Part shown: positions 4,570-62,150 of the stretch, piece after piece
How the letters are laid out: every line of letters starts with the position of its first letter
Numbering within the stretch: the stretch's first letter is position 1
Assembly (NCBI GenBank): GCA_036172245.1
Contig: JAYWIR010000077.1
Location: 186,001-250,000, forward strand
Source of the DNA: Raillietiella orientalis
Taxonomy: Eukaryota
Length of the DNA: 64,000 nucleotides
Direction: 5' to 3'
The notes under the pieces: generated by a model
Told to the model about the DNA's origin: nothing
Seen by the model: only the letters and a program-made list of their open reading frames with translations
Databases searched by the model: none
Program-made: the position numbers and the translations under genes

Positions 4570-5468
4570 CTAGACAGAGGAACACTGCTTAGCACATTTG
4601 GATATCATTTCCTGTAACTTTCCATTCTGTAAAAGATCTTCTGTCTCAGAAGCCCCACCAACAAATGAACCATTCACAAAAACCTTTGGAACCTACATTA
4701 TTTTCAGGCGGTCACATTTCAAAAAGTCTAGTTTAATTTACTCACTGATTTTTTTCCTGTTATATGTGTTAAAATTTCATGGTACAGAGATGCTTTTAAT
4801 TCTTCCATTTCATTGATTTCAATAACTCTTATAGTTTGTTGCAATTCTGCAAATATCTATTCAAAGAGAAATGTGAAGACAAGACGGAAAGATAAACTTT
4901 AAATACAAAATGGAGATGCAGATAAACAAGTATTCAGCATGCGGCTATTTAATTAGTATCAATAATACAACCATGAGGTATTCTCTAGACAATTGTTTTC
5001 TTGATCTTTGGGAAACATAATATAATTTAAATACGAATATACCTTTGTATAATTTTTAACAAGAATTTGTTGCAACAAATGAAATAAAACGACACAGGGA
5101 GCACTTACATAATAACGTGCCGTAACAAGTTAGATAAGTATTTTTTTTCTTCAATGTTACAGATATATATACATGGGGCATAATATTTGCACAACTTTCA
5201 CATCAAACAAACAAAAAAAAGGCCACAAACTGCCATTCTGCATGCACATGTTGTATAAAGCAATGGAATAAATTACTTTTTTCACATCGTAACAGAACGG
5301 GCAGGAAGTTTTCGAGAATATGGTAACGCAATTATGCTGCACCAAGTTCTTGATATCGTCCGTATATTTTTTACGCAGTCGTTTGTATTCCAGGACATCT
5401 TCGTCGTTAATATAGTCGAGATCTTTAATTTTTCTTGATTCAAACACTGAAGAAAAGCTTTGTCCCAT
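4570..5468 (-). CDS. Dithiol glutaredoxin (class I, CPFC), 3 exons: 5468-5277, 4856-4746, 4692-4570; 141 aa
   Basis: Exon 1 reads MGQSFSS...VTIFSKTSCPFCYDVKK|gtaatt. Exon 2 reads tag|IFAELQQTIRVIEINEMEELKASLYHEILTHITGKKS|gtgagt. Exon 3 reads tag|VPKVFVNGSFVGGASETEDLLQNGKLQEMISKCAKQCSSV*. All junctions are phase 0 GT-AG. The CxxC, (T/S)VP and GG glutathione-binding motifs are present. AATAAA on the minus strand at 4341-4346. Confidence 0.93.
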
Positions 5469-7967
5469 CTTAACACTAAAATTTGGAAAAGTTCACGGAA
5501 AATGATTTAAAAAATTCCTACGATTTCTGAAGCCATAATTTTATAATGTTCTATCAAAAGATACCACAACATTTTGCCACGCAAACTTTGATATCCATTC
5601 ATAATAACCGGTATGATCTTTGAATATGAAGATTTGCTAATATGTGTACCATTGAAGGATCATGGCATGATATAAGAAAGAACTGCCATTTTAAATAACT
5701 AAATACAGTACAATAACTAAATATTATCTTGATTGCAAGTGGGTTTCGGAATAGCAATGTACACCAGAAGCATACCTCATAAGGAAAAAATATGTCGGCA
5801 TGTGACACACTAATCAAAAGATGCTGAACATATAAAGATACATACATTAAGATTGGTACAGTTTCGATATATACAGATATAAATAAATAGACTCTATTCA
5901 TTTTCACCCAATTTGGCAATTCTTGTCTACCATACCGTATATCTTTTATCCAAAAGATCATTAAACACTTGATACCTGATAATAAATTTAAAGGAGTAGA
6001 AAAACTGATTCATTACCTGCAGCTTCACTTCGATCCTTCGATACGGAAAGATTCGATCAATCTGGATACCAAATAGAAGATTTTGCTGGACCTAAGTAAA
6101 TTAGTGCACTTCCCCAGACGCCAGCAAGGATTGGCTGGTCTTAGGGAGAATAATGATTGAGAGAATCTTTAAAACAAAGTTCAATTGATGTTCTAAAGTA
6201 CAGATAAAGAGGTTCTCTGTTTTTAGTTAACCCAATATGTACAGACCAGATAGTATTCCTATGAGTAATCAACTTTTTTAGCAAAACACTTATCTAAAAA
6301 AATGGATTTGTATGGGTAACGCTTAGATAAAATCCAAAAAACTTCAAAATTTGGAAATCTCTACATAAAAGTCAAGATGAGACTCCAAATTGAAATAGTT
6401 TCAGAAATTTTGGGTATAAACTTATCGATGCATATAATCGTAGAATTTGCTGATATGTTTGCAAAGCAAATAAGAAGCTCAGAAACTAATTAAAATGCAC
6501 TATAATAAAAGTAGTATAGAGTAAAAGTTGTTTGGAAACAATGAACACATTATTTGAAGCAAGTATTTCAAAGCGAGAGATGGAAAAGGAAGAAATTAGA
6601 GAGCAGAAAATTTTAAAAATGCTCTGAAAAAACTAAAAAGTAAACAGAAGACTATATACGAAAGCATACAATACAAAATGTGGAAGTATACTGGAATCTA
6701 GGTTTTCTATTCAGATTCAGAAAATCATTTGTTTGTAATATTCTCTGTAGCCTTAAATGCATAAAGTTTTCATTTCATTTATTTTTTGTTCTGCAGATGG
6801 ATAATCAGCCTCTTGTGATACCTTGCAGAAACGTAGCAAAGGATGGTTTGAATGAACTATATGACTGTATCATATATTTTAATTTATTCGTTTTTGCTTG
6901 TGGATTATAAAAACAATAGATATATAAAAACCAGCTTTAAAACTTCAAAATAACTGCAATTATTAGTTTGAAAGCATATTGAGGAAATAGCTATGCCCTT
7001 GTTGCGGTATGGTTATATTGAAATAAGTTCCTAGTTATTGCTATTATAACTGCCAAATTGATGAACAAAATACTGAAATTCAGACTACCAGCAGATAAAC
7101 TGAAGTGAGTGCATTAAGCAAGAGATGTTCTTGAAATGCTCATGATAAGTCAGACGTTGTGAGGATAAAATGCTCAAAAGAAAAGATCTAAGAAACTATT
7201 TACCGATTATGAGGAAAAAATCAGCAGTTAACCTATGAAAAAGTCTATTAAAACATGTAATGACACTGTGAGGCTTTTGATAAAACACTAACTATAAACT
7301 GAAAGCAATCCAGCTCCCTCGTACAAATAATTAACCTAGTAGAGGCATTAATAAATAACCAGCCAGACAACGGAGCAGATTTCAAGATTAGAGAGATAAG
7401 AGCATCTGTGTAGTTTTTTTAATCCTGTGGAAGTTAAAAGCCTTAGTCCGATCACATCTTTCCCCAATCACAATTTTGAGTTTCAAGATTGAAGAACTCG
7501 TAAAATGTGTTCTAGCTACACATCTAACTGTGAAAAATGGTTATTCATAATTTCACGCTTTGTTGAATATAGTTCCGATGGTTCCGGACCATAATCAAAA
7601 TGCCCTCCCCAGACAAGAAATTGCAAGAATTTAAGGCAACCTTTTTGCTTCCTTTGTAACTGAAATTAATGTCTGTTGATGGAAGCTATTCTAATTGCTT
7701 GTTTACAACTAAAGTGCAACTCGAAATGATCTGAACCAATTTTGTTTTCTTTGATTTAGGCTTTTTTTCTCTGGTCTGGTTTCCTCTTCATCACCTTTTC
7801 ACGCTCTGCGAGAATTGAAAATTCTCATTCCGATGTTAGATGCCTAAAAAATGCAGTAATAGACAAAAATGGATTTCAAGATGACGTTTGAAATCAAATG
7901 CTAACTATGCTCGGTTAACTAAAATAAATGCTTTGCTTAGTGCTTGGCTAAAAGCACAAGATTCTGA

Positions 7968-16200: not shown

Positions 16201-19200
16201 TGGGGAAGTATAGTCAAGTTCCCATTTGGTCGGCTTGAGCTTTTGGAAAGTCCATGCAAGAATCATGAGATCACAAGTAGCTCCTCCGTAGGGCTGTGTC
16301 GTGGCCGGAAATCCCTCCTCACTTGACCGAGATGCGAGACAGGAGAGACCGAAGTCCAAGGCGCGGATCGAGTCGACTTTGAGGGATAGGAAAATCGGGA
16401 TTTCTTAGGCGACTGATTATCAAACATAAACATGAACGACACAAAGACAAAGAGAAGGAAGAAAAAGAAACCAAAGAAAAGAAAAGCTCTGCCAGATTCT
16501 TCCGAAAGCCCTCAGCATGACCACTGGTCCATCGAGAGGCGTCGAGGGATGATGCACGGTCAGCGGCGAACGGGGACCACTTTTCCGCAGGAGCTGATTC
16601 CCGATTCAGCTCCGAAGCGACGGAAAACAAAAAGGTGGAAATAAACTCTTGGCCAGGTGCTACGCTACGCGCTTCCCAGCCACTCCGTGTGAACGATCTC
16701 TCCTCGCTACCATCGAAACGCAGCGCCCACATCCCTTAAGAACTGCATGAGACCTCATGCCACAACTGTCGCGAGTTCCACAATGTCTGGAGGCCGCAGT
16801 CGGCTCCCTCCCATCCCACAAAGGTGGAGTCCCCTAGAGGATATATATTTCTACAAGAATGCACCCGACCAGATTTAAGCGATGTACATCATTTTTGTTC
16901 GCGCGCCAGGTGCACTGTACTTGTGCACTCTTGTTTTGTGTACGCATCCGGGAACACCCGAGAGGTGCACGCGCGTAAGGCTCGAATGCAAAACGGCGCA
17001 AACACGCACGCATGAACTTCGACGTCGTACTGACACGCAACACAGGCGCAGCTGAGGTGCTCTCCGTGAACGTGCGTTAATCCGAGTGCATACAAGCATG
17101 AGTTGAACATGCGAACGTGAGCCTGGCTGGCGGAGAGGCACACCTTCGAGTCGGGACCCCAGATGTCTTAGGGGAGGCTCGGGAAAAGTCGGCGAGCTAG
17201 GTTTCGTAGGGGTGAGCTGGGTATCCGCCTACACAAACGAAACCTTGGAATGGCAAGGGAAAACTGCTCCCTGACGGTCGATGATTGACTTGCGTTCCTG
17301 GTTGTTCTTGTTTTTGTTTTCAACAAGCGAATAACATGAACTCCTCTTGGGACGTCTGACAATGATCCACTGATCCAATGTGGAGTGGCAAGTAGTGACC
17401 AAAGAAGAGCATGCGACTTGAAAACCCCGGATCAAATTTCGCGGAGCTCAGCCACCTTGCACTTGGTGACTCAGAAGGGAGGGAGAAAAGGTCAGCAGGA
17501 AGGGGATGCCTCTCAGCCAGTTTTCATCTAGGGATATTGCTCTCGGTGCCAAGTGGAGAACTGATGTCAAAAGTCTGCCCACGTCCTCTCATTCGGGGAG
17601 GGTAAGATCTGAGAAGGAGGATTTCCGACGGTGGTTGGGGAGTGCGTAGTGATCTGTAGGGATTTTTCGACCGGTGTCTCTAGGAAAGGATTTGCATTTC
17701 ATTCTTTGGTATCGACGGGGGATACGATGCCGGAATAGCACTTGAGGCTTCGTTGTACGGGGCTGGTCCGAAGCGTCGGCAGCAGTTTGGTTCGACGTTC
17801 GGTATGCCGTCGCCGACGTCGTAGGCTCAAGACTCAGCAGAATCACATCGCTCCCAAACCACTCTTCATGCTACCCACTAAGGAGCTAGGCCCTAGCTCT
17901 GCATCCATGCAGCTCCCTTCCCACCGTCCAACCGGAAGGACAGGTGACACGAACGATACTGTGCGAGAAAGTATGATCTCGCAAAGTATGAAAGATCTCG
18001 CAAAGCCGGAGACGGAATCGGTAATTTTGTTACGAATTTACTGAGGACTGTTGCCTGAGGCAACATCCATCTTGATCCTCTTCATATCTGCCTCCAAACT
18101 ATAGATCTCCGAGTTAACAGAACCCACCTCATCCTCGGATTGCTCATGCCCGCCCAGTCCACCCTTCCCACTCCTCTCCGCGGGGCGGAAGGGGAAAAGA
18201 GATTACCTGAACACCTGGGCAACGCGCAGGGCCAACGTCACGTGTTTTGAGGGGTTGCTATACTTGTAGTTGGCTTTGCAGAGCTCCAGTTGCAGGCACT
18301 CATCGTCCGACAGCCCGTGGAAATACCCTTTCGAGACGGTGATTAGGGGATCCAAGACCGCCACAGAGAGGATGCTGCTGACGTCCATCTTCTCCCAAGG
18401 CAGGTTCATGTCCACATCCACGATCTTCGAAAACGCAGTCGTGCCGAAGACATCCTTTAACACGAACAGGTAGTCCTTCGGAACGACGGAGCTCAGGTCC
18501 AGGTGCTGCAGTTGCATCCAGTTGCTCATCAGAGCCGACCGCACAATGAGAAACATCTTGGCGAAGATCTCAGACATGGCCGAGTTGGTGAAAATATCCA
18601 GAATTATCTGGGAGGCCTCGGAGGGATCCGTCCATACATTTTGCAAGGTGGACAGGAAATCCTTGAGGCTGCGGTTCCGGGAGAGCAACCGAAGCAGGGT
18701 GGAGGGCTCTATATCCCCTGAGATCATAGAGTGAAGCATGCCTTGGAGCTGGCTCACGAGGTCCAAGAGGCGTTCGCGCTCCCGGACGGTCAGTACTGTT
18801 CTGACTAACCCCTCGAAGATCTGCTTGGCGCTCTCCCATTCCTCTGGGTTGACAGTAGAGAGGACGTGGTCCTGGGAGGCGAGAGCAAAGCCTACTCCCG
18901 GAACCGAGATCGATGGCACAGCCGGACTCCTGGGCATCAGCAGGAAAGCGTCAGTGAGGAGGGTCAGGGAAGCGGCGGCGCCCCTGGAGGCCAGGAACTC
19001 CAAAGAGATCCGAAGCAGCTCAGGGGCATCCGAAAAAGCCCGAAGGAGGCAGGGGAGCCTGGAAGGGTTCAGGGACGAGAAGACACGCTCGAGGGCAGGG
19101 TCGAAGTCCAGGAGGCTCCCAAGGGCGTCGTAATCGCTTCCTAAGGGTTGCTGGGGGCTTCCCAAGGCTAGGAGCAGGGCCTCCAGGGCATCTCGGGAAG

Positions 19201-20379
19201 CGGGGCTAGGTAGCCTTCGTTGTCCACCGGTGAATGACTGTTCGCCCGTGCAAGGGACCAGTACTCCCTGGAGGAAAGTCGCCAAGAAAATCCCAGGCAG
19301 CAAGGCCGCTGTCATGGCAACCTGAATGTGAAAAAATAGCAGCAGACTCTAGACGAATTTGCGGACCCAGAAATCCACAAGATATACTTTTCAAGAAAAA
19401 AGCGAACGAGGGCACGGGGTGCGAGTCATCGAGATCAGGAGCTAGAAAAAGGCAAAACAGAGAAGCCACAACCCCAGTGGGAAGGATGCCAAGGAACATC
19501 GGCACTGCCATAAGGTTCTCAGGGAGCGGCTTCATTCCAACCAGATGGCGCGGGCCAGTATAGCATCGGGCCCGCCGCCAGATGTACATGCAAGCGTACC
19601 AGCCCCTAGCAAGCGGAGGGAAATCAGTGGCACTATTCTCCTCCTGAGGCAAGGAGATTAACGCCGCGGCGCGTTTCTGAGGTGGTTCAGGTTGGCTCGG
19701 AAAAGGCAGGCGCTCTACACTGCCCCAAGGGGAGGAAAAGGCTACATTCAAATAGGTTGGGCTGCCGGCGGTAGCAAGGAGCGGAAAAGGAACCAGAAGA
19801 ACCATCATGGCAAAAGAGGCGAGAAGTCCTGAAGGCGCAACCATGAAGTCAGGAGTCACATCCCATGTGGAGCAGAGAAAAAGCTGTCCCATGTGAGCAT
19901 TTGCGGAGTAGCCTTGCACTCACGGAAGGTGGTGCTTCTGCCGGAGAGGAAGTGGGAAGAAGTAGGAAGAGGTGAAGACTTTCAGGCGGGTTTCTCTTCC
20001 TCCAGCCCAGGCGGACTTTGGTAACGGTTTCCTCCCATCTGGCTTAATTCTCAGAGAGTTGCAAAACGCAGTGGTGACGCTGGATAAGTCGTCGCGGCAG
20101 CTGCGCCCTCTGCTGTTACTTCTCGACATGGATTGGTGCTAGCACCCGTCCACTCCCCACCAGAGCATCCGGCCTCCCTCTGGCGGCGTGGTTGCTCTCC
20201 GAATGATACCCGTGCCGTCGGTGCTAGAGGCTCGCATCCCAAGGGTAAGGACAGAGGATGAAGGATTGTCCGGAAGCTGCATCAGCTAGGAATTCTGCGA
20301 CTGCCGGTGTCTGACGAGTCGGTCCTGAGAGAAGACCGGCAGAGGCACTGCGTCCTCTCACGTGACTTTTCTTCGTCAT
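13230..20379 (-). CDS. Secretory-pathway Leu-rich protein with C-terminal DM4/DM12-like Cys motif and KDEL; exons 20379-20362 (probable), 19321-18207, 13392-13230; about 423-431 aa
   Basis: The 370-aa ORF 19315-18203 has a hydrophobic N-terminus (MTAALLPGIFLATFLQGVLVPCTG) and ends at TTCAG|gtaatc. It joins in phase 2 to ttttcag|TTCT... giving SLLSWVSSQ...YSKAIKAGSSKANCDFLYPGCQMNKHRKDEL*. AATAAA at 13198-13203 (minus). An acceptor at 19322 and a mini-exon (acgcag|...ATGACGAAGAAAAGTCAC|gtgaga) add MTKKSHVA in frame. The pattern ECL..ELC...Y..A...G...C..LYP.C resembles DM4/DM12 by eye. Confidence 0.8.
13676..13751. repeat. 27-bp inverted repeat (hairpin)
   Basis: TTTTCGAATCTGATCATTCATGCATAT, 22-nt spacer, ATATGCATGAATAATCAGATTCGAAAA; 26/27 complementary. 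Confidence 0.9.
14100..15500 (-). mobile_element. Possible LINE AP-endonuclease relic (CR1/Jockey-like) inside the large intron
   Basis: Weak motifs LSVP...FPDFLSKGRREGCMY (about 15310-15231, compare GGGVCxY) and FTSLLPTSVNHLSLG. No intact ORF. Confidence 0.3.
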
Positions 20380-41459: not shown

Positions 41460-44400
41460 GCAAATAAAAGTGCAGGTCTTCTCCGTCGCCACTGTCAATT
41501 GTGGTGAGTACCATCGTGAGGCTCAGAGATGCAGTACGAAAAAGCGGCAACGAATGATCATTTCAGGTTGGTGCTCGAGGCCTTGTAAGTGTTTCGCAGC
41601 CTTGTGCACGTTTGGAAGATCTCAGAGTGCCGTGCCAGCACCGTGGAATTGCAAGAAACCTCCATGGAGAGGCCACCGTTCAGCATAAATCCAAGGAAGG
41701 AGGGGATCAAAAAATTTGGTCTTCAGCCACGTTTCCGGCAAGCCACCCACTGGTGGAAGATGCAGGACATCCATCACTCTATTTCCTGCAATACTGCGGG
41801 GAGTAGCCTCCCCACAACTTCACGTAGCACCTGTTACAACGCTAAAAGGCTACACAACGCAGCCAATAGGCGATCCTTGGCTAACGTGCTCCATCCTTTC
41901 TTCCTCGTTCTTCTAACCGAGATACTTCATATCTGCATGCAAGATCGAGGAGATCGAGGACAAGACGAGCGAGGAGCTGTTCTAGCGGAGCAGTGCCAGG
42001 CCATCATGCAGCGTCATGTTTTTCTGATGCCGAGCTTGATGACTGTAATGCTCAGCGTTTGGTTCGACGAGGAAGGCTGGGTTTTCTCAAGTAGACCACG
42101 TCGCCACCAACGTAAAAGCGACAGAACTCGTTTCCCATCGTCGCTCCAGGCCAACACCATCTCGCAAGGACAGCAAGCAGCTGCTAGCGACGCGACTTGT
42201 GGCAGAGTATCCTTCACGAAGAGGCACTTTGCAACTTTTCTGAAGCTGCTCACTGGGATCCGGAAAAGCCTGGTATGCGGAAGTGATCAAGATGACTTAC
42301 AACAATACAACTGCCGAACTCTTGTCTGAAACCAGAAAGTGGTGAGGCAGGCGACTAGACTGCAATCACCAAGTTGGACGTCCCCAGAGGACTCTTCGAA
42401 AGCCAAAAGGACATTCCAATTTTTGAGCCCCATGAAGAGAACGACAACAGATTCCTTTATCCGGAGTTTCCTCTTAAGACAAGCAAAGCTCCGGAGAGGT
42501 GCACCTGTATCGGCAAGGGGCATCCTGATGAATCTGTTGTGAAGAGAAATTGGAATCAGAGGTTGTACGAAAGTTCCTTCGTTGACTCTTCTTTATACTC
42601 TGAGAAAGTAACAGCATTCTATCAGATGCACATCAAGGAAAACCCATGATAGTGACCCTCTGCTCTGTGAGTTAGTGCAAGACGGGCATGCGGTGAAGCT
42701 GACCATGCTTTGAACTGTGGCGTGCTGAAACTCACGTAAACAAATAAATGGCTTACTTGCTGCCTTGTTATTGTTTGTAATATTGCTATTTGAGCGATTG
42801 AGTATTAATTTGTCGCGTCGGAGGCTTTGTGGTTACGGTGGTCTCCGCGCTGGTACCATGCGTCGCGAATTCCAATACTCCGACAGAAATCGACTCAGTG
42901 AGTCGTGGGTTCGAATTTCTTCTGAAAGATGACGCTGGTTGGCCTACATTCATCCGGGTACGGCACCAGTAGCGGTTGAAACCGGATGCCCCCCGATCAG
43001 GACCGGAACAATGGGAGTCGACCTCCGGGTTCTTCCAGCAATCAAGGAATAGGGAGTTTCCCCTCCGGCTGTGCAAAGGAGAGGGACCCCTTTTGGGAGG
43101 GGAACCCTCTGTGGAGTAGGTGTGTCGCCACCTCTCTAGAGTTCAGAGAAGTGTGCTGCTCCCTTCGGGGAGCGTCCTTCTGAATTTCGGAAGGGTTCCT
43201 TTGGAGTTCCTTTCATAGGAAGGAGTGGTTCCCTTGAGGGTTCCCTCCAGAAAAGAAATTCCTACTAGCGGATCCTTTCCGGTTGCTTTAGGAGAAGAAA
43301 AATAGAGCGGATCCCTCTGGAAGTCCCTCCGGAGAGAATAAGGAAGGAGATTTCCTTCGGGGTTCCCCCTTGGAGACACACGAATTTCCATGGATTATGT
43401 CAAAAGCGCGTTCGCGGGACTTTTCAGAACGTGAAAGCCTAACCACTTGCATGCTTAACTGCGTCTGTTCCACGAGCTCTCACTGAGAATACAACAGAAT
43501 ATTTCAGCGTCGTTCCAAGGTAGCGGGATGACATCGATGCCAAAAGAAGGTGAACTGGAAGAGGTCTCCCAGTGAAGGCTTATCTCTGTCCAAAATTCAT
43601 ATGCCAAGTATTTGGCCAAAATTTGAGCGAATCTCTTAATCATGATCATGACAACGATGACTTCTCCAATGCAGCATCCGGGTGCTATGAAGACATGCTC
43701 AGCGCCTGGATGCCACATATGTGACAATGTGAAATGTGCCCAGGCTATCATCAGCAATAGCAGGAATGTAGGTGAAGACCTGGTAATGGTTTTCACAGAT
43801 ATGGAGAAGGTATTAGATACGATGGACTACAGGATGCTGCTGAATATATTGAGGAAACTGGACTTCCCAAATTCTTCAGCCAGTACTTTTAGAAGATACG
43901 CGAAGGTAAGTATTTCAAGACCCAAATCAATGGGCAAGATACAAACGCAATTCGGATGGAGAGAGGCATCCACCAAGGAGACGGTCTCAGTCCGACGTTG
44001 TTTGTGAACTAAATGGAGGCGGCGGCGTCGCTGACTGAAAGAGAGAGCCTTCTTCAAAGGGTTACCATTAATGATGACCGATTGACTCACCTAGTGCACA
44101 CAATCTTCTTGTCTTTCCGAAGGATGAAAGGGCATGCATTTTTGGATGTAGTTTAGATTTATGGAAATGGAAATGGACCTCGAGATCAACGCTCATTTTC
44201 GCTCATGGCAATTCTAAATCTCTCCACTCTTGCGGAGAAGGGGTTCAGTGATAGAACAGATAAAGTACCTGGGAATCCACATCGGCAATACCTTTGCTTC
44301 GCAGGTTCTGTAGAAGGAAATCCTAGGGAAAGAAAGAGAGGAAATAACACTTGAGTCGATTTCAGCATGAAGCAGTGGGCCAACCTGTAGAATGGCGTTC

Positions 44401-52405: not shown

Positions 52406-53328
52406 CTAGTCCATGGGGACAGAAAAAAGAGCATTTGGGTAACTAAAATTTTCATTAGTCTCTTCATTCCAGGTGTAATAATGGTTCTGGCAATCCTGAT
52501 CAACTCGCTGTTGGTCAGGAAAATCTTGATCTGGAAAACTAAGACTTTGGTAAGGATAATATTGCTCCTCAAGCATATTCTTTTGTTTGTGTACCACTGG
52601 GCTCTGGCAATTTATATCCTCCAATTCCAGGAATCTACTTGCCGAGATTGACTTTTCCTTTTGTGTTCTTATTTCTTCTTTTTTTTTCTTCATACGTCTA
52701 TTCTGGAACCACACTTTGACTTGCCTTTCTGTAAGGCATAGAGTCTCTGCTAACAAAGTCCGACTGCCTTTGCAGATATAACGGCTATTCCTAAATTCAT
52801 TCTCAAGGAGTGAGGCCTGATACTTTGTATACGTGGTCCTCGACCTTTTCCTGGCAACATTTTCTGAAAAGCAAGAAATTCCCATTAGAAACCGGCTATA
52901 AATTTCTACGATTTTTGCTTGAATCAAATTCGCCGAAAGCACGAGCCATTGCTTGCTTTTAACGAACATAAACGAAAAGATAGGAACGAAAAGCTTTGGA
53001 GATAAATTAGCTGAGCTCATCTCTAATTTTCATTCTAAATAGATAGTAAATGTCGATACTAAGTATGAATTTGGTAGGTCACAGCTTACAACTGTCATTT
53101 TTATGAAAGGTCACCTGAGCGGCATCTGTGATGCGTCGACTTTACAGGCGTGAGAGGGTTACGTGATTTTTGGATTGGTTCTTCAGTCTTGGAAGCCGTC
53201 AGCAACCAAAACAAGTTTTCTTTTTGATGAATCGGAGTCGCGGGTTTAGGGTTAATACAATTCGTCACCACCGCGGATGGCACGTTGGTATCTCCATACA
53301 CTAAGGGAATGAAGTCATTATATGCCAT
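52406..53328 (-). CDS. Divergent ANTP-class Hox-derived homeobox protein (ftz or zen/Hox3-like), 2 exons: 53328-53115, 52863-52406; 223 aa
   Basis: Homeodomain at 52852-52673: [60 protein letters not shown], with WFQNRR and Q50. Phase-1 intron (TCAG|gtgacc ... ttgcttttcag|AA) lies just upstream of the homeobox, as in Hox genes. Both exons are open. Confidence 0.88.
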
Positions 53329-55439: not shown

Positions 55440-57629
55440 CAGGCGTCTCAAACTTATTCTTCAATCACGGGCCATTTAATGCGACTGGCAAGATTCACGT
55501 GGGCCACATCACATTCACAAATTTTCTTACAATTATATTTTGAAGCGAGGATTTTGGAATAGAAATAGGATAGTTAAAACACATTATGTAATTAATTGAA
55601 TTTCGTGTAATAATATACAATTGCTATTATTGTTGCTTTTATTGAAACGTATTTAATTCAATCTGTTTATAAAACGAAATTTAATTTTTTATACCAGAAT
55701 CCTCCTAGTGCTTTCCTCCTACTAGTTTTTGACTATCTGGATTCAAAGGCTGGGAACAAACAATCTTCATTATGGCAGATAGATGTTTATCAGTTAATCT
55801 TGATCGGTGAGAAGTTTTATTTAATTTCATGCACAATTGCTCACACAAATACGTACTCTCAAAATAGCATAAAATTTCTGCAGCAAACTTTTTCGTTTCC
55901 GGGTATTTTTCATCTAAATAAGAATGTATTTTGTTAAATTCCTACTTCTCGATATTTGTCTTTTAAAACCGAATCATTCTGGAAAGCAATTAATTCCAGT
56001 TGTATCGAAGTGGGAGCTTTTTCAGCTTCAAAGGGAAAAGGACCATTAAAAAGAGAAAAAGTTTCTTGTGACTCTCTGAAATCATGAAAACGCTTATCGA
56101 ATTCGTTTTTGATCTCTTCAATTTCATCACAAGATTGTGGAAACGAGCAACTTTGATTTTGTGCTTTTAACTGCTCACACGTATTTTTGTAAATGATTTT
56201 TAAACGAAGTCAGTTTTTGTACAAAACTTGCTATTGCATTGTTCATATTCGTTATTAATTGATCTTCGCCTTGCAATGTAAAATTGAGATTGTTCAGATG
56301 ACCTGTAATATCTGTTAAAAATGCCAGGTCTTTTACTCACAAAGGATCTTTCATATCCGATATATTTTCGTTCTTTTCATCTTTCATTTCATGGAAGGCG
56401 ATAATTCCTTCAAAAGCAGATAGAAACTCTTCAAGACTTTGTGGCAGGAAAACGAACGAACTTCTGTGTGATAAGGAAGATCTTCGGATTCTAACGCTTT
56501 AAGGAACGAAGTAAATTGGCGATGGTCAAGTGCTCTCGATCGAATGAAGTTGACATTCTTCCTTACTGTTTTAAGTAGTTCTTCGTCCATTTTTCACATG
56601 GTTAAACAGACAACTTGTGGGTGAATAAGGCAATGGAAAACCCTGATTTTCGGTTTATCTAGATATTCATCTTGTAATTGTCCTGTTAGTCTTGACACAA
56701 ATCCTTTCGTTTCATCCGTCATCAATTTGGCCCCATAACCTGTTGTCACAGAAACAAGCCTGTCAAGAGGAAGCTTCAATTTTTCCAAAATGCCCCATAC
56801 GGCACTAAAAGTATCTTCACCAGTCGTGGTTCCGTGAAGAGGATTGCAAATTTCCGACAACTCTTCGGTGATCCTCACGTTGCCATCGCAACCACAGAAA
56901 AGAAAAGAGAAACAGCAACTTTTGCAACATCTCTTACATCCGTGTATTCACCAATCGCCATTGAAAAGGACTGAGCTTTAATAGATATTTCCTGCAGTTG
57001 TGAACTTCCGCCACATCTGCCACTTCAGTAATTCTGTCTGCCACCGTGTTTCTTGATAATGATACATCTAGAAATGACTGTACAGACTTTTCTGGACAGA
57101 CGAATCCGGCAGCTTTTGTCATGCATTCCTTGATTGAGGAGAGCCATCGGTGGATGATTTTGAACCTTTTGCTAATAAATAGCTTATTTCGTGACTAGCT
57201 CTTGTTACTGCATCATCATGAATTTCGTAAGCACTGGTTGCTGGCTATGAAGTGGATCCTTCCTGGTTTTCCATTTTTCTTCTGCATCTCCTTCGAAGCA
57301 CGAAAACTGTTCTTCGTGATTCGTGCTGTGATGCCGCTTCATGGTGTGTTCTTCAGCGACACGAATTGATTCTTTGCAAATTAAGCACGTGATTTGATTG
57401 CTCATTTCCACACACAAAAATAGTCCAGCTCCCACCTTTCTTTCAATCCTCTTCCTTCGTCATCAATCTTTCGTTTTTCATTTAGCTTTGAAAGCATCAT
57501 TTTCCGTATAAAAAATGGGGGTTTAATCTAAGTTTTAAAAATTCAAATGGCCGCAACTACTTACATTTTTTTAAAAAAAATAAGTTATAAAAGAAACACG
57601 GCCCGCGGACAGCCAGTTCGACACCCCCG
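55440..57629 (-). mobile_element. Full-length hAT DNA transposon (Buster/SPIN/GTF2IRD2-like), inactive
   Basis: Imperfect 15-bp TIRs: CAGGCGTCTCAAACT at 55440 and AGTTCGACACCCCCG ending at 57629 (11/15 match). 8-bp TSD GATCAAGA / GATTAAGA (7/8, nnnTAnnn type). Contains a transposase pseudogene. Confidence 0.9.
55705..57500 (-). pseudogene. Frameshifted hAT transposase
   Basis: Fragments spread across frames: KRKIDDEGRGLKERWELDYF, BED-like finger CLIC...MKRHHSTNH, SLSRNTVADRI, LHGTTTGED, LVSVTTGYGAKLM (canonical TDGA disrupted), FHCLIH, LDHRQF...LPYHTEVR, and C-terminal STYLCEQ..RSRLTDKHL. Several frameshifts and stops. Confidence 0.88.
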
Positions 57630-59929: not shown

Positions 59930-62150
59930 AGGTAAGACTGAAAGCATACGGGAGCTAAACATCCAAGATCGCTCCTTCCCGAAGTACTGGAAACGGTACG
60001 AGAGCCGGTACGCCTTAAAGAACGTGAAAGTGAAAATTGGCGTACTGGAGAAGAGGAACATCACCACTGATGTCTTCTGCATCTAGTACGAAGACCAAGT
60101 CCGGCACACGTCGGAAGAAATCGCGGAGGCTTTCCACCACCACTACGCAGCTCACTTCCAATGTCAGGATCTGTGCCCGACAGAACAGGAGAGCGCGCTA
60201 CGATACCTGCAAAGGAGGCTGAGCACGGATCAACAGAAAAGACTTGAAGAAGAAATCTCCCTGGAGGAAGTGAAAAATGTGGCAGCAGAGGACTGCAAAA
60301 GGACGTGGCGGCAGAGCCCGATAGTGTTCCCATCACGCACTATCAGCGCTACCTACACGCCTACCTGTGTCTGTTTCACGAGCTCACGCTCGCCTCAAGG
60401 AAGAAGGAAGGCTCGCTCCATCGTTCCACGAAGGCGGGATGAGGCCGCTGCCAAAGGGAGGAGACTTGACCAAGGTCATCTAATGGAGGTCCAACTCCAT
60501 CCTGAACACGGATGCCAAGTGATTGGTGAAGATCTGGTCCAATCGCCTAAGTAAGACGATGCCATCGGTCGTTTCTTCAACGCAGACGTGAGCGGTGCGC
60601 GGACGCTGCACTTCTGCGAATGTGAAGTGTCCCCAGGCACCCTGGGCTACAGCCAACACGTCGGAGAAAATCTGGTGTTGGGTTTTACTGATATGGAGAA
60701 AGTATTCGGCACCATGGACCACGAAATGCTCATGCAGATCATGCAGAAACTGAGCTTCCCAAGCTACTTCAGCCACTACCTAAAGAGGATACTCGAGAAG
60801 CAGGAGATCAAGATCTCAATCAATGGAATGGCGATGGCAGCAATTGGATGGACAGGGAAGCCCGTCAAGGTCTGCCCTCAGTTCATTGCTGTACATGGAG
60901 GCGGTGTCAACGCTCATTGAACGCTCCAAGGAATATGTGTCGATGACCAAAGTCTGATTCACCTGGCGTCCGCAGACAGTCCTGTTCTTCCTGAAGGACG
61001 AGAGTGATCAGCGTGCGTTCCTCGGTGTAGTCGAGTCCACGAAGAGAGGACTGGACTTGAAAATCAATGCCCAGAAAAGCCATTGGAATCCTGGACCTCT
61101 CCATGCTAACGGGAAAGGATTCTGAATGGCGGAAGTAAAGTACCTGGGCATCCACTTTGGAGGCGCCTCTGCATTGTAAAACTTGTGGAAGGAAGTCCTA
61201 GGGAAAATTCAAGCAGAGGCCGCCAAGGTATAATTTAACATGAAGTGGTGGGTCACTTTGTGGAATGGCGTTTTCTCACCAAGATGCTGTACAAAGCAAC
61301 CTTCTGCAGAGTTACAAGAAGGTCTGGGAGAAAATCGAAAGACTTCATAGGAAGATTTTATGGAGAGAGTTCAAGCCGAGGGTGAGGCTCAAACTTTTGT
61401 ACCGCCCTCGAGAGGAATGTGGAACCGGAATGAAGCCGTTAGAACACTCCTTGAAGACCATGGACGCGCGACAACTTCAACTCACCTGAAAATGGGACTA
61501 GTGGTCTTTGCGCCAAACAGAGACTACCCGAAGCTGCTGAACAACTAGAGAGGCCTGATGTCTGCTCTGATAGACGCAAAAGGAGAGTAGGTAAACATCG
61601 ATAGCACACGGGGAAGAAAACTGGTGAGGCTTCATTAATCTAAGATCGTGTCTAGAAGTATAGAAATTTGGGATGAAGAACTGGCCCTGGTGATACTGCA
61701 CTTTCATCCCGTTCCCAGGGAGACATCTACCAGGATACACCAGAGGCCAAGGTTGAAAATCGAGCATTGCGAACAGTTAGCCACCTGCGGCAATCATCAT
61801 CAAGTGTGATTGTTTCTCTATAGTACGGAAAGTTTAGCTATAGAACTCAGGACCTTTGAAAACATCACATCGAGAGTGGATGCTGATGACCAAAGCCAAA
61901 TGACAAGAATTCATGGAAAGACATTAAGACGACGATGCCCTCGATGCAGTTTGGAGTTGCTAAGGACTTGCCCATGTACACGCATTCACCGGACGTGTTT
62001 TGGCTGCGTTCCAGAGCGATTGTATTTTGGTGTTTGTGGAGATTCAGTAGTTGGAAGATGGCAGAAATGCCTGAATTCTCAACTAAAGAGTGTTTGGGAG
62101 ACACCGGGAGGTCGTTTCTTGTTCCTATGAAGTTGGAGGCATCCGCTCAC
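59930..62150 (+). mobile_element. Degraded, 5'-truncated Tx1/L1-clade LINE ORF2 (RT to C-terminal Cys motif)
   Basis: EEIAEAFHHHYAAHF, RLEEEISLEEVK, PKGGDLTKVI*WRSNSILNTDAK, FTDMEKVFGTMDHEMLMQIMQKLSFP, GLKINAQKS, YLGIHF, RRCPRC, WLRSRAIVFWCLWRF. Many frameshifts and stops. Confidence 0.85.

Follow-up and report, generated by a model that had tools for sequence, protein, structure and literature searches.

We describe here a divergent homeobox gene, contained in a 64,000-nucleotide stretch of contig C77 (hereafter the window), that comparison with other Hox sequences indicates is probably a displaced Hox3/zen. Our preferred overall reading, which we hold with moderate confidence, is that the gene is a Hox3/zen orthologue that has relocated, evolved fast and lost its canonical hexapeptide, and that the LFWLL pattern encoded by its first exon is not a demonstrated Ftz-F1 box. 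The initial annotation of the locus had interpreted it as a Hox-derived gene with this motif and no YPWM, possibly from a non-holometabolan host, and had likened it to insect Ftz; the gene, motif and host parts of that interpretation are supported, but the analogy with Ftz is not.

The gene lies on the minus strand and is predicted to have two coding exons. Exon 1 (53115..53328, 214 nt) is an ATG-led reading frame that begins at 53328, runs for 71 codons plus one base and holds LFWLLT. The predicted phase-1 intron (52864..53114, 251 nt, minus strand; CAG/GTGACC ... CTAAT ... TTTTCAG/AA) would join it to exon 2 (52406..52863, minus strand), an open reading frame that includes the stop codon, giving a product of 223 aa. 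Exon 2 encodes a divergent Q50 homeodomain (52852-52673, minus strand; PF00046, E 1.2e-20) followed by an 88-aa C-terminal tail (52409..52672, minus strand), the last 55 residues of which contain 11 D/E against 1 K/R. Exon 1 gave no Pfam match and no match elsewhere in the genome, exon 1 of ftz included, and there were 0 Rfam matches across the window.

The remainder of the window contains several other features. About 2.4 kb upstream of the Hox3-like gene is a broken SPIN/hAT-like transposase fossil (55700-57460, minus strand) whose match to a Spin-doc zinc finger (PF18658, E 2.4e-5) does not reach the curated threshold, and there are broken non-LTR reverse-transcriptase-like fragments at 60087-60920 and 43627-44007 (both plus strand), one piece of which has a weak RVT_1 match. 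A 381-aa open reading frame with a signal-peptide-like start (18203-19348, minus strand), for which neither a homologue nor a Pfam match was found, is possibly a lineage-specific secreted protein. At ~4570-5470 (minus strand) there is a multi-exon glutaredoxin with a CPFC motif and a weak Pfam match in exon 1.

Mitochondrial data bear on the identity of the host. Among the 8,000 sequences scored, chosen as those with the most words in common, the best matches of COX1 are to three pentastomids (72-73%), with insects at 68-71%. COX1 groups with the pentastomids (100/100) in a 14-row tree made up of pentastomids and insects alone, without Argulus or any other crustacean, and similar strand skew can attract such sequences. 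The mitochondrial contig is 64.5% A+T with a GC skew of -0.62 and has nad6 followed by cob, a composition and order that fit the Armillifer values and gene order tabulated in PMC12202648 better than those given for Argulus japonicus in PMC10999652 (71.6% A+T, nad6 then nad1); papers are cited here and below for the sections that bear on each point. Because shared skew can produce false groupings, the safe placement is a non-insect pancrustacean, with a pentastomid or close relative as the probable host. The suggestion of a non-holometabolan host is thus supported, in that the COX1 and other mitochondrial data make a holometabolous insect improbable. Between cox1 and cox2 the mitochondrial sequences also have a trnL2-like duplication and a degenerate copy resembling cox2 (contig C282, L046:1740-2310; the same in C285), and nad3 appears to be placed among rearranged tRNAs. 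Many nuclear copies of mitochondrial DNA are present, with 54 COX1 matches in the genome, and the 18S rRNA was also located there.

The genome (210 Mb in 491 contigs, searched with the PF00046 profile) has a Hox cluster on a different contig, C3. Between 2.15 and 2.85 Mb this contig carries Dfd (inverted), Scr, ftz, Antp, Ubx, a divergent abd-A and Abd-B, with lab and pb at 5.71-5.79 Mb, ~3.4 Mb from Dfd, and eve at 3.98 Mb, between Dfd and the lab-pb pair. These gene names are our own assignments, based on signature residues and on gene order. A similar split cluster is the branchiopod arrangement described in PMC11492255. The ftz gene, at C3:2.35 Mb between Scr and Antp, has the N-terminal arm KRTRQT, and its exon 1 (L037:4927-5328, minus strand) encodes a full YPWM, with LxxLL in neither exon frame; this is the homeotic-type state. 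The gene on C77 lies outside the Scr-Antp interval and has the arm KRSRTT, in contrast to the KRTRQT of ftz. It also lies outside the pb-Dfd interval, being on C77 when the cluster is on C3, but an off-cluster position does not disqualify it as Hox3 because myriapod Hox3 is off-cluster too. A mir-10-family hairpin away from the Hox contig (C1:9060709-9060780; L056:1501-1572) looks to us like mir-993. The usual location of mir-993 is between Hox3 and Dfd (PMC4862073). The hairpin on C1 fits a break-up of the Hox3-Dfd interval. Separately, the Dfd-Scr interval contains mir-10 proper, and let-7 is on C7 with two mir-10-family hairpins. The abd-A homeodomain (C3:2749579-2749749) is unusually divergent, with EFLYNHY and EISAAL, which may be connected with reduction of the trunk or abdomen.

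Nine of the ten arthropod Hox genes are therefore accounted for on C3 and the missing one is Hox3, so that the C77 gene, which is single-copy at the DNA level, is probably Hox3/zen. A zen-type query ranks it 9th of 29 genome matches, and reading all 29 revealed no further Hox3-type homeodomain in the genome; PF00046 has 90 genome matches in total, and none of the ~20 of these that were left unread matched the zen query. Several other identities were considered and rejected: Cdx because cad is present separately, ind, eve and exex because each is likewise present separately in the genome, and a recent duplicate or retrocopy because the DNA is single-copy and the intron is kept.

The homeodomain itself is no more than 37/60 identical (62%) to anything fetched. 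All four rows at this level are of Hox3/zen type (a Vespa zerknuellt 2-like protein, two wasp proteins labeled hypothetical and antennapedia-like, and one unnamed), and many Antp rows come next at 36. No close relative was seen among the 37 matches of one protein search, the top one being Drosophila zen2, or among the best 150 of 14,869 in another, and in an atlas search exon 2 had a first match at 0.88 and exon 1 no usable match. Trees of 37 rows, and then of 25 rows after removal of 12 that were long or redundant, both put the gene beside Hox3/zen or anterior-class rows on a long branch (1.16-1.61 changes per column) with weak support. The homeodomain comparison and the trees agree with the earlier description of a divergent Hox-derived gene. 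In a competing view, which we regard as unlikely, ftz or another central Hox gene was duplicated, the copy dispersed and diverged to give the C77 gene, and Hox3 was lost as in Tetranychus. Precedents for such losses exist, with duplicated ftz and lost Hox3 described for Tetranychus (PMC4862073) and Sacculina reported to be without Hox3 (PMC9582164), at least in the sections cited. The diagnostic residues point mostly the other way: S4, T6, C27, L34, E36, V45, V47 and E60 occur among the 21 Hox3/zen-type rows and in 0/28 central or ftz rows (1/28 for L34), C27 being partly circular because CRPRR was among the criteria by which the classes were defined, whereas T7 and Y11 lean toward the central and ftz rows. 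Mean BLOSUM similarity is highest to central rows (185.6) and ftz rows (182.7) against 172.7 for Hox3/zen rows, with the maximum score alone favoring Hox3/zen (199 vs 193), and the best matches of the homeodomain within its own genome are Scr, Ubx and Antp. AU tests rejected grouping neither with ftz (p=0.224) nor with pb (p=0.255), but the best trees keep the gene apart from ftz and, as noted above, its exon 1 does not match that of ftz. Any other origin would be about as unlikely as a ftz or central duplicate, and Hox3/zen remains our preferred identity.

The LFWLLT motif (53197..53214, minus strand) is an LxxLL pattern with a Trp, and minus-strand translation at 53214-53197 places it, as the initial annotation had it, in exon 1, where it sits within a 10-residue stretch and LFWLL forms residues 39-43. 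Under the predicted splice, homeodomain position 1 is 32 residues from the end of LFWLL and 34 from the Trp, close to the ~35 aa originally estimated. The reported lack of YPWM extends to the surrounding DNA, since neither [YF]PWM nor [YFILV][PKDAQSE]WM is present in any minus-strand frame over ~31 kb upward from 52861, a span made up of window sequence together with L040 and L052; an upstream exon carrying a hexapeptide is accordingly rejected within that distance. The caution that a five-residue motif can arise by chance is justified by the numbers. LxxLL appears in 1.2% of 100,000 shuffles of exon 1 and in 2.7% when everything outside the homeodomain is shuffled. It is also found in 24/187 fetched homeodomain proteins, in 5/66 of the 75-residue windows upstream of a homeodomain and in 12/76 single-homeodomain proteins of 150-400 aa, sets that include related and mis-predicted proteins. 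With LxxLL this frequent in homeodomain proteins, a reader primed by Ftz would occasionally meet one. Nuclear-receptor (NR) boxes dock as amphipathic helices. The core hydrophobic moment of LFWLL is 0.32, as against 0.74 for LRALL, and that of its 9-residue window is 0.23, a value near the bottom of the range for 32 background windows with LxxLL. A single-sequence fold of exon 1 gave a pLDDT of 55 and a pTM of 0.13, too low to be informative. By its moments LFWLL appears weakly amphipathic, and it is not clearly above chance. Drosophila zen2 proteins (P0010, P0013) have a C-terminal, strongly amphipathic LxxLL (DFLQHLLNA, DFLEHLLNA), so zen-type proteins can, on the evidence of these sequences, carry C-terminal LxxLL motifs.

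What LFWLLT does, if anything, can be read in several ways. LXXLL in Ftz is regarded as mainly a holometabolous acquisition, and the original proposal amounts to LFWLLT being, whatever the orthology of the gene, a selected NR box that would dock in the AF-2 groove of Ftz-F1 (NR5A), so that a Ftz-like coactivator would have arisen convergently in a crustacean. In its favor, the aromatic residue at +2 and the T at +6 resemble the NR5A-binding boxes of SHP and DAX-1, which have an aromatic at +2 and T/S at +6. The strongest point is the rarity of LxxLLT, which occurs in 0.1% of exon-1 shuffles and 0/187 of the fetched homeodomain proteins, a pattern picked post hoc. The exact LxxLL followed by T is also that of the Ftz box LRALLT (PMC3203194). 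Ftz-F1 is encoded in the genome (best match 2xhs, E 2e-62), its ligand-binding domain split over exons and its AF-2-type end, LLMEMLH, intact, but this gene is expected in any arthropod. The low hydrophobic moments, the commonness of LxxLL in unrelated homeodomain proteins and the Asn at -1 of LFWLL all weigh against an NR box, as does the gene probably not being ftz. Residues flanking NR boxes are known to matter (10.1101/2020.03.28.013060). We therefore consider a selected Ftz-F1 box very unlikely. The parallel with Ftz is weak, given that the cluster ftz of this genome keeps YPWM without LxxLL and the C77 gene fits Hox3/zen best. The more specific scenario, in which an off-cluster crustacean Hox3 turned an Exd-binding Trp motif into LxxLL and became a Ftz-F1 coactivator, is slightly less probable again; it would constitute a second, independent switch from Hox to nuclear-receptor partner on a Hox gene other than insect ftz, made while the genome's own ftz stayed homeotic-type. 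Were LFWLLT to bind Ftz-F1, the coactivator switch could evolve twice, reusing the hexapeptide site.

A different possibility, which we judge unlikely to a lesser degree, is that the Trp of LFWL is a working degenerate hexapeptide that enters the Exd/Pbx pocket. The position suits this, with the Trp 34 residues 5' of the homeodomain and encoded ahead of an intron in phase 1, the layout seen in Hox genes. The distance from W to homeodomain is ~21-42 residues in fetched proteins with an anterior-type hexapeptide, several of them fused mis-predictions, and vertebrate linkers span 3-50 aa with Trp the key residue (PMC9136108). Weighing against a working hexapeptide, and against the suggested derivation from one, LFWL(L) shares nothing with [FY]PWM but the Trp. 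A loose hydrophobic-x-W-[LM] pattern is also no rarity, being present in 2.2% of the shuffled versions of exon 1 and in 27/187 proteins. The motif might also go untranslated altogether, because the true first exon is another than the one predicted or because the gene is in decay, an outcome somewhat less probable than a working Trp motif. Exon 1 gave neither a Pfam match nor a usable atlas match, the searches returned no orthologue, and the donor at 53114 is without G at +5. Against this, the ATG-led frame stops at the best donor, whose phase matches a good acceptor: TTTTCAG/AA at 52863, preceded by a CTAAT branch site, requires a phase-1 donor, and CAG/GTGACC at 53114 ranked 1st on two of three scorings and 3rd on intron-only scoring, scored against a matrix derived from 36 homeobox-intron donors in the same genome, a training set that is CAG-biased by coding. 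In 7/9 cluster Hox genes, too, the best-scoring acceptor 5' of the homeodomain is phase 1. Three phase-1 donors are present in the exon-1 frame (53114, 53162 and 53258). The plausible ones, 53114 and 53162, are both downstream of LFWLLT and leave it inside exon 1; the sole upstream one, 53258, scores poorly. GC content is raised in exon 1 (46%, vs 35% in the intron), and both exons are intact reading frames.

Returning to the Hox3/zen reading, we envisage that the gene left the Hox contig and that fast evolution and loss of the canonical hexapeptide are part of its history. The Q50 homeodomain, with its recognition helix intact, would bind TAAT-core sites, most likely without classical Exd/Pbx help, and the acidic tail, a possible activation domain, would activate transcription. 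LFWLL would lie, as a hydrophobic patch, in an N-terminal arm that appears to be unstructured, at approximately the place of a long-linker hexapeptide. It may have arisen by chance, be a degraded remnant of the Trp motif or serve as a generic patch for cofactors, and so be either neutral or cofactor-contacting; Ftz-F1 would be one candidate partner among several, with a small probability.

The closest parallels are with genes that have undergone comparable changes elsewhere in the arthropods. A search of the literature, in which few subscription journals were covered, found no description of Hox genes from pentastomids or branchiurans. Hox3 and ftz are both divergent in Artemia and mayfly trees and are not monophyletic there (PMC11492255, PMC9331126). 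Insect Ftz resembles the C77 gene product in having LxxLLT N-terminal to a Hox-type homeodomain and lacking YPWM, the loss of YPWM and gain of LXXLL being described as separate elements (PMC4327956, PMC3203194). Unlike the insect case, ftz is here a distinct gene that has YPWM and lacks LxxLL, and the C77 motif is bulky and appears weakly amphipathic. Insect zen is more similar: Zen lost the hexapeptide, with no other co-factor motifs known according to the cited section of PMC7536231, and shares with the C77 gene a divergent homeodomain, in the C77 gene probably of Hox3 type, and a short protein. The C77 gene differs from insect zen in being off the Hox contig, in a non-insect pancrustacean host, with 62% homeodomain identity. 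Hox3 is outside the Hox cluster in Strigamia maritima (PMC4244043) and Trigoniulus corallinus (PMC7523956), and these myriapods, like the present genome, have nine Hox genes together and a Hox3-like gene elsewhere. Whereas the myriapod Hox3 is described in those sections as conserved, the C77 gene is a single copy with a strongly diverged homeodomain. Our analysis adds a lineage in which Hox3 seems to be off-cluster, diverged and hexapeptide-less while ftz kept YPWM, a state that parallels both insect zen and myriapod Hox3, and it serves as a warning that where Hox3 is said to have been lost, it may be hiding in divergent form at another genomic site.
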